Of a DNA stretch of 64,000 nt, positions 1 through 11,726 are shown one piece after another (the first letter of the stretch is position 1; every line of letters begins with the position of its first letter). This DNA comes from Escherichia coli (lineage in GTDB: Bacteria; Pseudomonadota; Gammaproteobacteria; Enterobacterales; Enterobacteriaceae), in assembly GCF_048403405.1 (NCBI RefSeq), contig NZ_CP183129.1. One strand, 5' to 3'. The position numbers and the translations under genes are program-made. The notes beneath the pieces were generated by a model. It was not told the DNA's origin, did no database searches, and saw nothing but the letters and a program-made list of their open reading frames with translations.

Positions 1-756
1 CAACCCGGTATACATCGCCACTTTTTCGGCAAACATCCGGTGCGCCGCATCAATCCGCTGCTGCATGTCCTGGCGAACCTCTGCCGGCAACGCTTCAAAC
101 TGATTGCCATCCACCTTGTGCGCCCCGGCATAAATCAGCGTGATATCCACACCGGCCTGCGCCAGATGACCGGCATAGCTGACATGGCTCATCATCACGC
201 CAATGGAGCCGATACGGGATGTCTGGGTAACCAGCCGTCGGGAGCAGGCCGACGCCAGCAGCATGGCTGCAGAACAGGCAGTGTCATTGCACAGTGCCCA
301 GACCGGCTTCTGCTGACGGAGGCGGTAAATCATGTCAGCGCAGTCAAACGCGCCGGCGGCCTGCCCGCCCGGACTGTCAATGTCCAGCAGTACGCCCCGC
401 ACCTGGCTATCCGCCATTGCCTGCTGAAGACAGGCGACAATGCCGTCATAGCCTGTCATTCCGGAAAATGGCCGCATACCGCCCAGCCGGTGCACCAGCG
501 TGCCGGTCACCGGCAGTACAGCAATACCGTTCACCACCCGGTAAACACGGGCCGGTCGTTTACCTCCGGCCATGTACTCGTCCGTTTCAGCCAGCATTCC
601 GGGAGCATCAAGCTGTACCTGTTGTTGTGGTACCGAAAGACTTGCTGCCCCTATCTCGCGCCCGAGCGCGCAAAAGAAAACCCGCGCATAGGCGGGCTCC
701 AGAAGCAGCGGTTCATTGAATGCTGCGGCAATAATGTGTGAAAGATTACGTCTCAC
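1..756 (-). CDS. Head maturation protease/scaffold, lambda gpC-like (S49 peptidase family); 3' end cut by window edge
   Basis: Minus frame open from GTG at 756 to position 1; my translation ...NEPLLLEPAYARVFF...GIAVLPVTGTL...QRIDAAHRMFAEKVAMYTGL matches lambda C as I recall it. Confidence 0.85.
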   Translation of the reverse strand, partial: MRRNLSHIIAAAFNEPLLLEPAYARVFFCALGREIGAASLSVPQQQVQLDAPGMLAETDEYMAGGKRPARVYRVVNGIAVLPVTGTLVHRLGGMRPFSGMTGYDGIVACLQQAMADSQVRGVLLDIDSPGGQAAGAFDCADMIYRLRQQKPVWALCNDTACSAAMLLASACSRRLVTQTSRIGSIGVMMSHVSYAGHLAQAGVDITLIYAGAHKVDGNQFEALPAEVRQDMQQRIDAAHRMFAEKVAMYTGL

Positions 757-2338
757 GTGGTGTTGTCTCCTCTTCCGGCCTGCGACTCTCCGCTATCTGC
801 TGCTGATACGCCTGCGCTATCCACACCGGACGTGAGAGTCCGGCTTTTTCCCGCTCTGCAGATTCCCTGACCTGCTGGCGGAAAATGTCCTGATAATCCT
901 CGCCCATCAGCGCCAGCTCTTTCTCATACGTGCTCAGTCCGGCCTCAATGCGCATCACTGATTCCTGAACCTCCTTGAGCCCGTCAATGGCCATTCTTCC
1001 GGCTCCAATCCACTCAGCCCGTGACCAGGCTGATCGCGCCTGATAAAAATCAAAACGTGCCCGTGGCGGACGAATAATCCCCCGAAGAAGTGCCTCTTCC
1101 AGCCAGCAGGAAAACATCTGCGTGGCCAGCCGGGACGCAATAAATTTTCGCCGCCCCATAAAATAGCGCCACGACTCATTGGCGGATGCGCGGGCACTTG
1201 AATAACTGACCTTCGAGTAATCACGGGACAACTGTTCGTAGGAAACGCCAAGACCGGCGGCGATATACCGCAGCAGCGCCTGTTCAAGCGCCGAAAATCC
1301 ATTGTCTGAATCCTGCGCGGTCTGAAGTTTCAGATCATCACCGGGGAAAAGGTGCGGAATTTTGACACCGCCCAGCGTCACGCTATTCGTGTCATACCAG
1401 GTGGAGAACTTATCCAGAATATTAATAAGCGGATTATCCTTCTGCCCCTGCGGCGCACCGGCGATATATTCAAAGGCCTTTTCGGTATCAAGGTCACTTT
1501 CAATCGTCGCTGCATACATCGCCTTCACTATGGCCGACTGAAGCTGTGTTGCCTGCAGGGAATCGAGCATCTTCAGCCGTTCCATAACGCTGTAAAACTG
1601 ATTGGCTCCACGGGTCTGCCCGTCCTCCACCGGCTCGAAAATATGCAGCATGGCCGGACGCCCGGTGGGAAGTTCACGCGGGATCCGTTCCCATCGTCCA
1701 CTCCCGGAGAACGGAAAATCATCCTCACAGATATGGTACGCGACGGCACGGCCATATCGATCGACCTCCACCCCGGCCCGCAGAAAACGGTTCCCGATAC
1801 CATGTCCTGGCGTGTCCACCCGTTTCGGACTCACGGCTTTAAAACGCGTACGAAACAGTTGCGTGCTCTCCGGATCCCAGACCGGCTGCACAAAGATTTC
1901 GCCGTTAAACGCATGAACGCCCACACCTTCACGAATAAATTCTGTAAACGTGCGTTTCCCTTCCACGTCGATCTCGCCAAACACCCCTTCTGCGTATTCT
2001 GACCAGGCCGCCTCCACCTCATCGACAAAACTTTTTGTCGCGGTCTCCCGCATCCCCAACCAGCGCCAGTTCGGGCGGTAGCTGATAAGAAACATATGCC
2101 CGACAATGTGATCCTTATGCAGGGCCACCGCATTGGCCGCTATCCCGTTATTGCGCACCAGATCATCTGCCCGGGCATTCCCCAGACGCAACGCGGGCAG
2201 CAGGGCCGCATCGGCACTCTGCGCCGGTGGCAACCACTCCGCCATTTGCCCGCCAAATCCTGCGCCGCCCCCGTTGTAGCTGAGGCTCTCCCGAAGCGGA
2301 ACGCCGTTCACATCAATCAGGACAGGCGTTCGTTTCAT
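746..2338 (-). CDS. Portal protein (lambda gpB-like)
   Basis: 530-aa ORF starting MKRTPVLIDVNGVPLRESLSYNGGGAGFGGQ; position between W and C as in lambda. Confidence 0.9.
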   Translation of the reverse strand: MKRTPVLIDVNGVPLRESLSYNGGGAGFGGQMAEWLPPAQSADAALLPALRLGNARADDLVRNNGIAANAVALHKDHIVGHMFLISYRPNWRWLGMRETATKSFVDEVEAAWSEYAEGVFGEIDVEGKRTFTEFIREGVGVHAFNGEIFVQPVWDPESTQLFRTRFKAVSPKRVDTPGHGIGNRFLRAGVEVDRYGRAVAYHICEDDFPFSGSGRWERIPRELPTGRPAMLHIFEPVEDGQTRGANQFYSVMERLKMLDSLQATQLQSAIVKAMYAATIESDLDTEKAFEYIAGAPQGQKDNPLINILDKFSTWYDTNSVTLGGVKIPHLFPGDDLKLQTAQDSDNGFSALEQALLRYIAAGLGVSYEQLSRDYSKVSYSSARASANESWRYFMGRRKFIASRLATQMFSCWLEEALLRGIIRPPRARFDFYQARSAWSRAEWIGAGRMAIDGLKEVQESVMRIEAGLSTYEKELALMGEDYQDIFRQQVRESAEREKAGLSRPVWIAQAYQQQIAESRRPEEETTPRET

Positions 2339-4453: not shown

Positions 4454-4934
4454 CGAGTAAATCCGGTAATTTATCCCCCGCCCGCGCACACTGATTTGCC
4501 CCCTTCGCAATAAGGGTTTTCAGATGGTCAAGATGGCGCGGTGTTAAATCAGGAAACTGTCGCTGCATGGATAAAGGGATGGAATCAAGCGTACTGGATA
4601 ACGCCATTGCCAGCTTGCTGAGGGCAAAAATACAGAACCCGGTATCAATAAGTTTTCCTTTTGACACCTCATTTTTTAACTGCTGTGTAACAGCCTGTTC
4701 TGCTGTCAGTTCCCATCTGGCAATAAGCAATTTCTCCTCATAGTCGTCTTCGCTATCGCCATCAGGCACATCGTTTTTACTTCTTCTCAGATACGATATG
4801 TAAAAATCGCGCCAGGCATCCAGATCCAGTTGCCCTCGCTTATTCGATATCGGGGCACCCGGCAATTTCTGCAATCTGCGAAGCTGGCGATCGGTCAGAC
4901 TTAAATGCCTGGCAACTTCAGTCTGCGTAGCCAC
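4425..4934 (-). CDS. Terminase small subunit (lambda Nu1-like)
   Basis: 169-aa ORF, GTG start with upstream GAGGTGAGGA; C-terminal half resembles Nu1 (…PLSMQRQFPDL…RHLDHLK…). Confidence 0.8.
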   Translation of the reverse strand: MATQTEVARHLSLTDRQLRRLQKLPGAPISNKRGQLDLDAWRDFYISYLRRSKNDVPDGDSEDDYEEKLLIARWELTAEQAVTQQLKNEVSKGKLIDTGFCIFALSKLAMALSSTLDSIPLSMQRQFPDLTPRHLDHLKTLIAKGANQCARAGDKLPDLLDEYIRATTE

Positions 4935-5129
4935 TCCTCACCTCGCAAAAACTCTCACTTCACAATCACAACAAAACCGGTCATGTCCGGCTTACATGTC
5001 TATTTTTTGTGCATGTCCGGTTCACAGAAGACCTCTTTTTTTATTTTTCATATAGTTAACTTGAAGAGAAACCGGACATGGTTCCCGGAAAATTTTCATA
5101 AATAGCGAAAACCCGCGAGGTCGCCGCCC
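4935..5129. other. cos site: cosN cohesive end at 5118..5129 (AGGTCGCCGCCC, revcomp GGGCGGCGACCT) with cosB-like region toward Nu1
   Basis: 5101..5129 is the reverse complement of the lambda left-end sequence GGGCGGCGACCTCGCGGGTTTTCGCTATT; immediately upstream of Nu1. Confidence 0.8.
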
Positions 5130-5277
5130 CGTAACCTGTTGGATCGACGGAAAGGACCCGAAAACGAGAATAATTATCACTTACAGCAAGAATCGAATCT
5201 GATCTATTATGGTGCTTGCTATTATGTGCCGGCACAAGTGCGTCGTTTACCGTCATTTCACACAGAGGCATCATCAA

Positions 5278-5892: not shown

Positions 5893-6219
5893 TCAAGGAC
5901 GTGACGGCGTAAAGATAAATTGTCTCTTCACTCCCTGACAGGGGCGATTCTTTTCAAATCGCCATTTCGCCATGGCCTTCACCACTTCATCACGAAACAA
6001 ATTATGAGGCTCTGAGCGGAGAAAAACGATCCGTGTCACAGTCCCATCAGCACCAATATCGAACTTAACCTCAACCAGCCCCTTGATATAATTTGCTGCA
6101 GCATATTCCGGATATCGTGGATACACCGTCACTAATTGCCGGGGCTCATCAGCTTTTTGCTGCGAGCATCCCACTGCCAGGACAGATAACAGAAAAAGTA
6201 GTAAAAGGCGTCTTTTCAT
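5893..6219 (-). CDS. Lipoprotein with TonB C-terminal domain
   Basis: Start ATG 6219 after AGGAAT; lipobox LAVGC; …YPRYPEYAAANYIKGLVEVKFDIGADGTVTRIVFLRSEPHNLFRDEVVKAMAKWRFE aligns with TonB C-terminal domain. Confidence 0.75.
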   Translation of the reverse strand: MKRRLLLLFLLSVLAVGCSQQKADEPRQLVTVYPRYPEYAAANYIKGLVEVKFDIGADGTVTRIVFLRSEPHNLFRDEVVKAMAKWRFEKNRPCQGVKRQFIFTPSRP

Positions 6220-6529: not shown

Positions 6530-7003
6530 TTATTTCAGGCACTGAGTGCGGATATAGTCCTGTGCCCCTTCCAGTTGCTTGTGCATCGTCATCAGCCGCT
6601 CTCTGAGGGTGAAATAATCCCGTGTAACGGTGTCTGCCAGTTGGGGGCCGGTTGCATTATCCACGCCGGAGGTGGTGGGGGCTTCACGCACGGAGCCTGG
6701 ACAGGTGGCGTTGATCCGCAGGCGCTTACGACCAGCGGCAACGTCAGCGCGAAGAGTTTCATTTTCAGCTCTCGCATCGGCTAATTCCCTCGAGTATTTT
6801 GCATCGAGCGCAGCAACATCGCGCTGGCGCACCTGCATATCAGTAATGGTTGCGTTCGCCAGCTTCAGTTCACTGGCTTTGTTATCGCGCTGCGCTTTGT
6901 AGGTAATCGCGTTATCACGGTAATGGTCTGTTGCCATCCACAGCGCACCACAGGCCACCAGCAGAATAACGATAAACGCGGAAAGCATTCGGTTTATGTT
7001 CAC
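6530..7003 (-). CDS. Rz i-spanin
   Basis: 157 aa; [14 protein letters not shown]…DYFTLRERL…QLEG matches lambda Rz. Confidence 0.9.
6592..6777 (-). CDS. Rz1 o-spanin lipoprotein, embedded in Rz in +1 frame (true start probably internal MKLFALTL)
   Basis: [10 protein letters not shown] lipobox and [14 protein letters not shown] proline-rich motif as in lambda Rz1. Confidence 0.8.
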
Positions 7004-7131
7004 CCCAGCAACCCCGACGAAGACAACATCATCCAGGCCATGGAAAGAAAAAGAGCAACCAGCATTAGTGAAAATGAAATGCCGACAATTACACAGAGGA
7101 TCTTCGCCAGCGTTATGAGTTTGTCTGACAT
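7000..7131 (-). CDS. Hypothetical single-pass membrane peptide (43 aa)
   Basis: ATG 7131 preceded by AAGGGAGGA; stop overlaps Rz start (ATGA); hydrophobic core [26 protein letters not shown]. Confidence 0.45.
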
Positions 7132-7145
7132 GCTTAATCCTCCCT

Positions 7146-7328
7146 TCACGATTTCAACGCAATGACCAGTTTTGCCAGCCCATACAGCATCGGGGACACA
7201 GCAACACCGACCGCCACCCACTTAATGGCAAAAGCCAGTGCTCTGCTGATGTCATCAGTTACAGGCGCTTTCAGTTCAAGGCCATTTTTCATAGTCAACC
7301 TCAACAGAATTCGTTTACACTTCGCCAT
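7146..7328 (-). CDS. Hypothetical small protein with C-terminal hydrophobic helix (60 aa; alternative start at 7292)
   Basis: ATG 7328 preceded by AAGGGAGA; ends 14 nt before next ORF; …[27 protein letters not shown]. Confidence 0.45.
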
Positions 7329-7484: not shown

Positions 7485-8018
7485 TTATCTGTCGATACCC
7501 CAGCACGCCAGCGCGCTCTCCTGGTCACGACGGGATACCTGACCGTAACAGTTGTTTGAACGAATACGGCAGTCTCTGCCACCGTCCTTAATCCACCAGC
7601 GAATCGCTTCGCAGGCACCTTTTCGATCACCAGCATTAATTCGTCTGTAAAACGTCGACGGGAAACACTTACCGGGATCAATGTTGTACGGACAGAATGA
7701 CGCGATCCCCGCTTTCTGGGGTTCGGTCAGCGGCACTCTGATGTTTTTCTCCACCCACGCCAGCGCTTTATCACGCTCAATGGCGTTAACCTGGTCGCAT
7801 TTTTCCTTCGACAACTTCATGCCCGGAACGACAGGTTTGCCATCCACCATGATGGCACCACGGCAGATGGTCCAGATACCTGCACCATCACGGTATGCCG
7901 TGGTGTGGTTGCCTTCCTTTTCATCCAGAAACTGGTCGAGAATGTCAGGCGCAGGCGCACCAGCGGCAATCAGCGCCAGAACGGCAGCCGACAGGCCGTA
8001 TTTGATTTTGGTGTTCAT
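7485..8018 (-). CDS. SAR endolysin (T4-lysozyme-like, phage 21 R type)
   Basis: N-terminal hydrophobic SAR segment YGLSAAVLALIAAGAPA; E-x8-D-x5-T catalytic spacing in EGNHTTAYRDGAGIWT. Confidence 0.85.
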   Translation of the reverse strand: MNTKIKYGLSAAVLALIAAGAPAPDILDQFLDEKEGNHTTAYRDGAGIWTICRGAIMVDGKPVVPGMKLSKEKCDQVNAIERDKALAWVEKNIRVPLTEPQKAGIASFCPYNIDPGKCFPSTFYRRINAGDRKGACEAIRWWIKDGGRDCRIRSNNCYGQVSRRDQESALACWGIDR

Positions 8019-8054: not shown

Positions 8055-8945
8055 CTAAATACGCACTTTAAGATAAGTCAGCCCCGGATGAAGCCAGTAA
8101 GCCGGCACTTTTTTAAAGGGTGGAGTATTAAAATCACGAAGAAGAGCCTCCCGCACAATTGCATCCTTATCAGCACCACTGGCCAGCGCTTCAATCTCAG
8201 CGGCTACCTGAAGATATCCCATGCAACGGCCAACGCGCTTCATCAGCCCCTGCTTTTTATTGTTCTTCAGGTAATCAATGGCAAATTCAATGAGCTCCTC
8301 ACTGTGCTGGTGCGATGGAGGTGTTACTTTCCCATTTTCTGAGATGGTTATTTTCCCAGCATCACCGGATACAACAAAGGATGGCCGGTTACACTCCCAT
8401 TCCGGGTCACTGAAATTATCATTATGAATACTGAAACACTCTGCGAGATTTCTGCTCATCACTTTCCGACAATAATCGTCAAACGCAGCAAACTGCTTTT
8501 CATCGCCAGAAGGCACCAATATCGACCATTTCTTATTCAGCTCAACGACGTAGCTCTCCAGTTTTTCAATACGTGATTCAACATCATCTTTTTCTGACCG
8601 CAGTGTTGACGGCGGCATCTTCAGAGAACAAGTAATTCTTCCCGGTAGCTTTCCTTTGTAGGTTATCAACATATCCTGCGCCTCTAAAATTACGGGGCGC
8701 TTTTCCGGCAACGGTTCGTTCCATTCACATAACCCGGCAGCAACATCCATGAAAAACTGCTTCGCCTGCTTTTTCGCCTCAGCTTCGTAAAACTCCAGCG
8801 TGGCACCTTCAGTACGGTCAAGACTAATCGCCACATCTGGCAACAACAGCGACGCTTGCCCGTCACCTTCCGACTTCACAGTAACAGTAACCTTATCCCC
8901 GTAATTATTTATCCCCTTAACAACCAGTTCATATTTTTTATTCAT
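8055..8945 (-). CDS. Hypothetical 296-aa protein inserted between holin and endolysin
   Basis: Long ORF, ATG 8945 four nt after holin stop with GGGGAGAG upstream; ends 36 nt before endolysin; no TM segment, no motif I recognise. Confidence 0.7.
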   Translation of the reverse strand: MNKKYELVVKGINNYGDKVTVTVKSEGDGQASLLLPDVAISLDRTEGATLEFYEAEAKKQAKQFFMDVAAGLCEWNEPLPEKRPVILEAQDMLITYKGKLPGRITCSLKMPPSTLRSEKDDVESRIEKLESYVVELNKKWSILVPSGDEKQFAAFDDYCRKVMSRNLAECFSIHNDNFSDPEWECNRPSFVVSGDAGKITISENGKVTPPSHQHSEELIEFAIDYLKNNKKQGLMKRVGRCMGYLQVAAEIEALASGADKDAIVREALLRDFNTPPFKKVPAYWLHPGLTYLKVRI

Positions 8946-9472: not shown

Positions 9473-9661
9473 TCACTCCGGCTCAGTTGCACCACTGACC
9501 ACCACATCACCTTCTGCTGCAATCGCCTGCATCAGGGTATAAGGGGTTATGGCCACCGGACTACCAAACGGCTGCCAGCCCTCTTTCAGTTTATGTGTCA
9601 GCTTTTCCGCAAGATCTGACGGCGACGCCGCCCTGACAACATCATAGTGTTTAAATGCCAT
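9473..9661 (-). CDS. Small conserved phage protein (possibly DUF1737-like)
   Basis: ATG 9661 preceded by GGTGGAAAG; MAFKHYDVVRAASPSDLAEKL…; family assignment from memory only. Confidence 0.5.
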   Translation of the reverse strand: MAFKHYDVVRAASPSDLAEKLTHKLKEGWQPFGSPVAITPYTLMQAIAAEGDVVVSGATEPE

Positions 9662-9921: not shown

Positions 9922-10257
9922 ATGAAGTGGATTGTGATTGATACAGTTATCCAGCCATCATGCGGAATATCTTTTTCAGTCATATGGAGTAAAATAAAAT
10001 TAATAATCTGGTATCAATCGGATGCTTTCTTACCTCCTGAAAGTATATTTACACTGACTCACACAGGTATCATGCTCAATAACAAAGTGCTACCTGTAAC
10101 CATTTACAACGTAGTACCATTCAATAAAACATTCTGGAATTTAATCAAAAACAGCCAGGAATGCCCTACAAATACAGATAACGTATTGAATGAATGCTTT
10201 AATAACCGTTGCACTCTGCAAATATGTCCTTATGGGCTAAAACAACAAAGTCCATAA
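9922..10257 (+). CDS. Hypothetical protein (111 aa), AT-rich moron on opposite strand to late operon
   Basis: ATG preceded by AAGGAAACTAA; strongly AT-rich relative to flanks; candidate promoter TTTACA-15nt-TATACT upstream; GC hairpin downstream (10295..10316). Confidence 0.5.
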
Positions 10258-10614
10258 GGAGTTTACTCACATCTGACAAAATCAATATAAACAGCCCCTC
10301 CGGAGAGGGGCTGGAGAGTGGCGCTATGTGCCATTGCATGGTGCCGGGTGCCTCCCGGTGAATTCAGTACCAGCACCTGAATCCGCGATTATCCCATATA
10401 CCTACTCGCTGATTGCCCCTCCGCACAGGGGGATTCACCATGCCAGTTTCTTTTAACAAACTCCCCGCAAACCAGACAACAGTCAACCGCCTGAATTGTG
10501 AAGTATTTAAAAATTTCTCCCGCTAACTGATACCCGGCTAACAGTCTGGCGTTTTCTTTTTCAGCAACGGGAAAGCAACAACCACCACACCCACCAGCCG
10601 CCCATTTACCACAA

Positions 10615-11036: not shown

Positions 11037-11726
11037 TTAATTGACTTTTGCAATATCTCGTCGTGAAAAGGTCGCTTTTTGTTGCGCTCTTATTTTCACG
11101 GAGCAAATCAAGGATTCTCTATCGAGGCGCTTAAAAATATCGCACATCTCACGCCAGTAGTTCGCATAATTATGGCTCCAGTTATCAGGCTTAACTCCAC
11201 ACAGTCTGGCAAGCTCCTGTCTCTGGTAGACCTCACACCCGGTAACCCATCCTCTGACATCCTGTGCCGCCAGCCAGATCAACTTCTTCACACGCTCCAG
11301 CGTTTTCACTGCAATTTTTCTGGAGCCGGACTGAGTTTTAAATTCACTCCACCCCCACTGCGTTATCGCGATCTGATGCTCCCAGCAAATGTTTCCGCCA
11401 TAACACCACAACAACCACGCCTTCTGATGTTCTTCCAGTTCCAGAACAGCACGCCGCCACGATGATGTTGCAAACTCAACAGGACTGACCAGCGCAATTG
11501 ATGAGCCTTTCGCCAGTGATTGTTTACCCTGGATCGGGGGATTATCCCGCGTGATCATTTTTCCGGTTACCTCATCGCGGTAACGAATTTTTTTGCGTCT
11601 GTAACGCCCTGTATCGAACAGGGCATTTTCCTGCCAGGCTTCCAGCTGGCATTTTGTCGACCCACTGAGATCTGCAGTGGCAATCATGAGTTGCTCACGA
11701 ACAAACTGTAAATACTGGTTATTCAT
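11037..11726 (-). CDS. Late-gene antiterminator Q (phage 82 / Qin quuQ type)
   Basis: ATG 11726 with GAGGTG upstream; MNNQYLQFVREQLMIATADLSG…; position between rusA and tR'-like terminator. Confidence 0.75.
   Translation of the reverse strand: MNNQYLQFVREQLMIATADLSGSTKCQLEAWQENALFDTGRYRRKKIRYRDEVTGKMITRDNPPIQGKQSLAKGSSIALVSPVEFATSSWRRAVLELEEHQKAWLLWCYGGNICWEHQIAITQWGWSEFKTQSGSRKIAVKTLERVKKLIWLAAQDVRGWVTGCEVYQRQELARLCGVKPDNWSHNYANYWREMCDIFKRLDRESLICSVKIRAQQKATFSRRDIAKVN

Follow-up and report, generated by a model that had tools for sequence, protein, structure and literature searches.

The window (the whole 64,000-nucleotide stretch of Escherichia coli DNA that was analysed) contains the lysis cassette of a lambdoid prophage, and between the holin and endolysin genes of this cassette lies an intact open reading frame (ORF) of 296 codons on the minus strand (Table 1). 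The ORF opens with an ATG (8943-8945), has an alternative GTG start one codon upstream that would give a 297-aa product, and closes with a TAG (8055-8057). The holin is 80% identical to K-12 EssQ, and the MYQMEK dual-start motif is present in it. Four nucleotides (AGTG) separate the holin stop codon from the ATG of the ORF, whose Shine-Dalgarno sequence, GGGGAGAG, is located inside the last holin codons. At the other end, 36 nt separate the stop codon of the ORF from the ATG of the endolysin gene (at 8018). The endolysin shares 89% identity with K-12 RrrQ, and its N-terminus is rich in Gly/Ala and SAR-like. A preliminary description of the locus had given the intact ORF and both spacers correctly, leaving the strand unstated.

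The same description had presented the product as a soluble, cytoplasmic-looking protein next to the lysis genes, with neither a transmembrane segment nor a Walker motif, and in this it holds up. The product has a GRAVY of -0.42 and a pI of 5.95; no transmembrane segment is found (the highest 19-residue Kyte-Doolittle mean is 0.75), and reading the sequence reveals no Walker A motif. A membrane protein or antiholin is thus excluded by the lack of a transmembrane segment, and an NTPase by the lack of a Walker A motif. At 46%, the GC content of the ORF is below the 54% of the neighbouring holin and endolysin genes, a moron-like composition.

Upstream of the cassette lie the gene for the antiterminator Q and an element matching the STnc100 sRNA family, which we read as the pR' leader. 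A strong terminator hairpin (stem 10313-10292) closes the element and places tR' at about 10292. We infer that the Q-dependent late transcript, with the ORF on it, would begin at this element. No promoter-like site was found on the coding strand between STnc100/tR' and the ORF, and the only hairpin downstream of the ORF, at 8096-8079, has no T-tract. Given the leader upstream and the lack of a promoter-like site in between, the simplest reading of the layout would be that the ORF is expressed late together with the lysis genes, as the preliminary description had supposed. Expression in a lysogen is unlikely, given the same lack of a promoter-like site and a gap of only 4 nt after the holin stop codon. 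Lambdoid morons have a promoter of their own upstream, a terminator downstream and a composition unlike that of their neighbours; the ORF has the moron-like GC content, with no promoter-like site on its strand and no T-tract at its downstream hairpin. The K-12 gene ydfR attracts almost no RNA-seq reads without induction (PMC13232886).

Several further features of the region deserve mention in their own right. The STnc100 element is probably a terminated pR' leader, comparable in kind to the StxS sRNA of Stx phages (PMC7547250). Between Q/pR' and the holin gene, antisense to the late operon, is a 111-aa ORF (9922..10257, plus strand) that RefSeq names anti-adapter protein IraM; it resembles a moron whose expression is separate from that of the late operon. 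Upstream of the holin gene, where Stx phages have a full 650-aa DUF1737-SASA gene (NanS-p-type esterase), the window retains a truncated DUF1737 remnant (about 9476..9661, minus strand), which carries a pseudogene annotation. Two small minus-strand ORFs, of 43 aa (7000..7131) and 60 aa (7146..7328), lie between the endolysin and Rz genes and belong to PHROGs 4906 and 1115, both labelled 'unknown function'; the first is hydrophobic. This endolysin-Rz gap is a second variable slot of the cassette, occupied in related Stx prophages by an ANT-domain protein or an N6/N4 methyltransferase. Rz/Rz1 is closely followed, ahead of the terminase genes, by a 108-aa 'TonB family protein' ORF (5893..6219, minus strand) with a lipoprotein-like N-terminus.

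Table 1. Features of the late operon and parts of the 296-aa ORF in the window
Feature	Position	Strand	Basis
Antiterminator Q gene, upstream of the late operon	11037..11726	-	annotation
STnc100-family sRNA, read as pR' leader ending at tR'	10283..10472	-	Rfam match (132 bits)
S21/EssQ-type class II holin (pinholin type), 71 aa	8950..9165	-	PHROG, K-12 comparison
Long-form YdfR/DUF1327-family ORF, PHROG 1085, intact, 296 aa	8055..8945 (stop included)	-	ORF call, PHROG, Pfam, homologues
N-terminal DUF1327 domain, aa 1-76, three beta-strands and a long helix	8718..8945	-	Pfam, model
Linker, aa 77-112 (PEKRP...KGKLPGRIT...)	8610..8717	-	alignment, model
Helical middle region, aa 113-178, a/d heptad	8412..8609	-	alignment, model
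C-terminal domain, aa 179-296 (118 aa), three-strand beta-meander and four helices	8058..8411	-	alignment, model
R21/RrrQ-type lysozyme (endolysin), SAR-like N-terminus, 177 aa	7485..8018	-	PHROG, K-12 comparison
Rz-like spanin with embedded Rz1 (6592..6777), end of lysis cassette	6530..7003	-	PHROG, annotation

Family, annotation and domain architecture

The preliminary description found no similarity to any family it could name. Such similarity is in fact strong: Pfam DUF1327 (PF07041) matches aa 1-100 on model positions 1-88 of 93 (E 2.1e-40, 137 bits), and PHROG 1085, labelled 'unknown function', matches the ORF from end to end (positions 1-296 of 296, E 1.2e-189). RefSeq names relatives 'YdfR family protein', and full-length intact homologues are 85-97% identical to the window protein. 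NCBIfam has no family that matches the ORF. It is thus near certain that the product is a long-form member of the YdfR/DUF1327 family, a soluble accessory protein encoded beside the holin gene in the Q-dependent late operon of enterobacterial lambdoid prophages. The existence of the family and its slot are already catalogued in Pfam, PHROGs and RefSeq, and K-12 has a member in the same slot. The possibility, raised in the preliminary description, that this is a common lysis-cassette component already on record is therefore largely borne out for its existence and position, though not for its function. Indeed, the literature search found DUF1327 mentioned in a single comparative-genomics paper, a 2024 y-ome paper still counts ydfR as uncharacterised, and a literature search for ORFs between holin and endolysin genes in Stx phages returned nothing relevant. 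A sigma-S run-off array that includes a CFT073 ydfR probe is uninformative, and 'ydfR' in the literature is mostly an unrelated melanoma cell line.

RefSeq/PGAP annotates only codons 1-112 of the ORF (8610..8945) and treats them as part of a broken gene ('YdfR family protein, missing C-terminus'; partial pseudogene). The same 112-codon call is made at three further loci (L001, 11111..11446; L095 and L096, both 701..1036). The frame of 296 codons is unbroken there, and in each of the three genomes checked codons 113-296 have no annotation. The exact protein sequence of the ORF is absent from the protein collection that was searched, probably as a result of the PGAP pseudogene call, although a different choice of start codon would also fit. 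The consequence of this mis-annotation is that the C-terminal module is hidden from protein databases.

The protein is made up of four parts, an architecture that is new here: the DUF1327 domain, a linker, a heptad coiled coil and a conserved C-terminal domain. The N-terminal domain is modelled with a pLDDT of 62-86. The linker is conserved among E. coli alleles and is of low model confidence, and the PGAP pseudogene ends exactly at its last codon, 112. In the middle region the a and d positions of the heptad are occupied by V122, I126, L129, V133, L136, W140 and L143; L136 is the sole invariant internal column in the family alignment, and the length of the region differs between alleles. Invariant or near-invariant positions of the C-terminal domain are H214, G239-R240, L245-Q246, A248-A249-E250, P276, K278, W284, P287-G288 and Y291-L292.

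Modelling of the full-length protein is poor (mean pLDDT 51), and a Foldseek search of that poor model against the PDB returned nothing at an E-value below 0.1. The C-terminal domain modelled alone, from a 15-sequence alignment that includes relatives of 30-40% identity, reaches a pLDDT of 89 and a pTM of 0.82. Pfam finds no family in the alignment of this domain, and a sequence profile search of the PDB gave a best E-value of 0.08. Foldseek against AFDB50 returned 19 matches at E-values up to 1e-3, all of them E. coli, Shigella or Salmonella members of the family; the match at rank 20 (E 6e-3) is also a member, and the next, from outside the family, has an E-value of 0.85. The C-terminal domain thus appears to be a confidently modelled orphan fold, new here, with no relative in the PDB, AFDB or Pfam outside its own family. 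The profile and structure searches that the preliminary description had called for have identified the family through Pfam and PHROGs, and no fold relative of the C-terminal domain beyond it.

Pairwise dN/dS values are 0.19-0.38 for the C-terminal domain, 0.2-0.5 for the middle region and 0.45-1.0 for the N-terminal domain, where counts are small for close pairs and two allele classes are found. These values show that the C-terminal domain is under purifying selection. From the dN/dS values, the N-domain allele classes and the difference in GC content, we conclude that the gene is a real, constrained coding sequence of mosaic origin. Conservation and dN/dS argue against a chance ORF, and the intact, conserved state of the ORF against a true pseudogene.

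Distribution of the family and content of the slot

Parts of the ORF are found by megablast in 2701 of 5426 complete E. coli genomes, at up to 8 places per genome, and 495 genomes carry at least 80% of its length; 327 records match the ORF at 99% identity or more. The family is narrow, since a profile search of 1.84 billion representatives recovered only 107 proteins; the sources of its named members are E. coli, Shigella and Salmonella. In distant full-length members (266-314 aa) the order of N-terminal domain, coil and C-terminal domain is preserved at 30-40% identity, and their N-terminal domains are homologous to DUF1327 (hhalign probability 90%, E 1.5e-6). Relatives carried by a Salmonella diarizonae genome, and by contigs from metagenomes and read archives, are placed between the genes for the Q antiterminator and the holin, often after a DUF4406 gene and beside a holin of the Phage_holin_2_3 family; the Salmonella copy is a 165-aa form consisting of the C-terminal domain only. 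As these distant relatives are upstream of the holin gene and beside a different holin family, the holin-endolysin junction does not define the family, yet a holin gene is always found no more than about 1 kb away.

The preliminary description took it that holin and endolysin genes are normally adjacent, and that an insert between them is unusual. To judge by 80 IMG/VR contigs with a holin 99-100% identical to that of the window, 69 of which also contain the endolysin, neither holds for this type of holin, with the qualification that the sample is biased toward this holin allele. The two genes abut (gap of 3-4 nt) in only 9 of the 69 contigs. In the other 60 they are separated by an insert of 374-1445 nt, with YdfR-type modules in all 60, and in K-12 the Qin prophage has ydfR in this place. 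Across the 69, the DUF1327 N-module is present in 51, the C-module in 20 and the exact arrangement of the window in 7. At least 25 different arrangements of the slot occur among 64 contigs with near-identical holin. Since nine contigs have a 99-100% identical holin and no insert, the survey shows the gene to be dispensable for the lysis cassette.

The modules occur in various combinations: fused forms with N-terminal domain, coil and C-terminal domain (268-341 aa), genes for the N-module only (103-116 aa), and genes for coil and C-terminal domain only, of 213 aa or of 185 aa, the latter directly between holin and lysozyme. Both modules exist as separate genes and are fused in the ORF, so the N-module and the coil with its C-terminal domain could presumably work apart. 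Among sequenced phages, long forms are carried by the Stx2a-converting phage Stx2_95 (329 aa) and by PhiR5_1, whose host is E. coli C (a 211-aa DUF1327 protein). PHROG scans of the distant relatives and of the alternative architectures gave 'unknown function' throughout.

Two side observations concern the variability of the slot. A 305-aa variant (P0057), found on 275 contigs, agrees with the long forms from aa 1 to about 210 and continues after 'AECF' with a different 95-aa C-terminus that has no Pfam or PHROG annotation; in the variant as a whole Pfam finds DUF1327 and nothing more. The divergence may represent a recombination junction or an alternative module. In Stx prophages and PhiR5_1, an opposite-strand ORF of 86-95 aa is present between the YdfR-type gene and the lysozyme gene (4902..5189, minus strand, in L003-L006; 3084..3344, minus strand, in L093; labelled 'DUF1823 containing protein' in PhiR5_1). 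It is absent from the window.

Possible functions of the long form

The sole experimental lead to function comes from a study of K-12 YdfR (PMC13232886, RNA Biol 2026). A two-hybrid screen that used RNase G as bait yielded YdfR three times, in the form of its first 72 codons; the full-length protein interacts with Rne 1-597 in the two-hybrid assay; and Strep-YdfR co-purifies Rne 1-598-FLAG and DNase-resistant nucleic acid, for which the authors leave carry-over of RNA by a contaminant possible. The interacting part of YdfR is aa 1-72. Overproduction of YdfR leaves the transcriptome almost unchanged and causes no growth defect. In separate work, combined deficiency of RNases E and G was found to delay lysis and to lower the yield of Stx2 phage (PMC8443680).

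We tentatively propose, as a reading that is possible rather than probable, that the ORF encodes a dispensable late protein that modulates host RNA decay rather than lysis. The product would be made late, together with the lysis proteins, yet stand outside the lysis machinery. The beta3-alpha domain at its N-terminus would attach to host RNase E at the catalytic N-terminal half (and to RNase G), and/or to RNA; the coiled coil, of three heptads, would oligomerise the protein; and the orphan-fold C-terminal domain would bind a second partner. Acting in this way, the protein would be a modulator or adaptor of host RNA decay late in lytic growth, and one effect might be to shield the long late transcript or to redirect RNase E. 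The link to RNase E would extend to the window protein from a single paper on a 103-aa homologue that is 47% identical in the shared domain. The nearly unchanged transcriptome and unaffected growth on YdfR overproduction count against the proposal, as does the poor full-length model. Of the roles suggested in the preliminary description, an accessory late or host-takeover function is the one that fits binding of K-12 YdfR to the catalytic half of RNase E (PMC13232886). A toxin, suggested alongside it, is unlikely for the N-terminal domain, given the lack of a growth defect on YdfR overproduction.

The mosaic alleles and the dN/dS of 0.45-1.0 in the N-terminal domain would fit an arms-race protein equally well: a late anti-defence factor or decoy, or a moron for superinfection exclusion or defence, in each case with partners that have no connection with RNA decay. 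The extreme mosaicism of the slot, the two N-domain allele classes and the moron-like GC content all point in this direction, as do the up to eight copies per genome, a number consistent with one per prophage. Nevertheless, we consider such a role unlikely. PADLOC-DB 2.0 gives a sole match, to PbeC (E 0.018, 11 bits, over the coiled-coil stretch), which is not significant, so that the defence protein envisaged in the preliminary description has no match among PADLOC models, and NCBIfam gives none either. Known anti-defence genes are, moreover, usually early and not late. A moron acting in the lysogen sits poorly with the lack of a coding-strand promoter-like site, with the 4-nt gap after the holin gene, and with the near absence of K-12 ydfR reads without induction (PMC13232886).

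Since the distance from the family gene to a holin gene never exceeds about 1 kb, a role linked to lysis is still conceivable, and the preliminary description had suggested a regulator of lysis timing. Such a protein would bind the cytoplasmic tail of the pinholin or the SAR endolysin and so tune the time of triggering. The tight 4-nt junction suggests translational coupling to the holin, and ydfR is among the envelope-integrity mutants picked out by a screen of the Keio collection (Paradis-Bleau 2014, as cited in PMC13232886), although the knockout phenotype could be a polar effect on rrrQ. The survey speaks against such a regulator, as nine contigs combine a 99-100% identical holin and a tblastn-matching endolysin with no insert at all, and so do the distant relatives that lie upstream of the holin gene and accompany a Phage_holin_2_3 holin. 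S21-type holins carry their own antiholin by way of the dual-start motif, and this motif is present in the holin of the window. Given also that the protein is soluble and has no membrane anchor, we regard a timing regulator as improbable. Less probable still is the reading implied by the PGAP call, namely that the ORF is recombination debris or a decaying gene with no selected function as a fused protein. The annotation of codons 1-112 alone as 'missing C-terminus', the many truncated or split versions, and the absence of the exact sequence from the protein collection would all agree with decay. Against this, the ORF is unbroken both in the window and in three further genomes inspected directly, has the 327 records noted above at 99% identity or more, is found in the same intact arrangement in 7 viral contigs, and has counterparts in the long forms of Stx2_95 and PhiR5_1. 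Its C-terminal domain combines a dN/dS of 0.19-0.38 with a confident fold, and the order of N-terminal domain, coil and C-terminal domain is kept in relatives at only 30-40% identity, which makes decay very improbable.

To return to the RNA-decay proposal, a more specific form of it is that the long form is a phage-encoded RNase E adaptor, in which DUF1327 would sit on the catalytic half of RNase E/G, the coil would dimerise the protein, and the orphan-fold C-terminal domain would bring in a particular RNA or protein. We think this version doubtful. If true, it would mean that temperate lambdoid phages, Stx phages included, reprogram host RNA decay in the late phase, and the protein would stand beside T4 Srd or RapZ as their temperate-phage equivalent, built on a fold not described before. 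More generally, a very common late gene of E. coli prophages, including Stx-converting phages, now has a concrete lead in RNase E binding. As K-12 YdfR looks truncated, experiments on YdfR alone may miss a function carried by the conserved C-terminal domain.

Comparison with known systems

The closest well-known counterpart of the window protein is YdfR of the K-12 Qin prophage (P76160), to which its N-terminus is 47% identical over aa 1-74 (BLASTP, E 6e-21). Qin has the gene in the same late operon and the same slot with the same 4-nt junction, in the order essQ, 4 nt, ydfR, rrrQ, rzpQ/rzoQ. The two proteins differ in that K-12 YdfR has 103 aa, comprising the N-terminal domain and a short helix, and its stop codon overlaps the start of rrrQ, whereas the window protein adds the conserved linker, the coiled coil and the 118-aa C-terminal domain. 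Because more distant relatives carry linker, coil and C-terminal domain, the short K-12 form is probably a truncated derivative, and the long form probably the architecture shared by the family.

Among Stx phages, the 329-aa protein of Stx2_95 (BCI50300.1, PHROG 1085) agrees with the window protein in full-length architecture and in slot, down to the 36-nt spacer ahead of the endolysin gene. The window allele differs from proteins of this type in lacking a 33-aa segment of the middle region. In other Stx phages the modules are instead split into two ORFs and reversed, in the order holin, 213-aa coil and C-terminal domain, 75-aa DUF1327, lysozyme.

With T4 Srd, the likeness is a functional analogy only, that of a phage protein on the catalytic half of RNase E, which for the window protein would follow from K-12 YdfR. 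Host mRNA decay is stimulated by Srd, which binds RNase E at its N-terminal half (Qi et al. 2015, PMC4649665, as cited in PMC13232886). Srd is an early gene of a virulent phage, whereas the ORF is a late gene of temperate phages. Sequence similarity to Srd is not indicated. A tblastn search of 50,697 phage records matched 106, with names of Stx-converting, Escherichia or Enterobacteria phages; judged by record count alone, this is too few to include T4-like phages, for which far more matches would be expected. The best 40 of the 106, those listed, are Stx-converting or other temperate-type E. coli phages.

The remaining comparison is with RapZ, a family for which Pfam gives no match in the ORF. 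In the study of K-12 YdfR, RapZ served as a positive control and fell into the same class of interaction pattern as YdfR (PMC13232886). RapZ is an adaptor that presents GlmZ to RNase E, and a comparable pairing of an RNase E-binding module with a second module is conceivable in the window protein.
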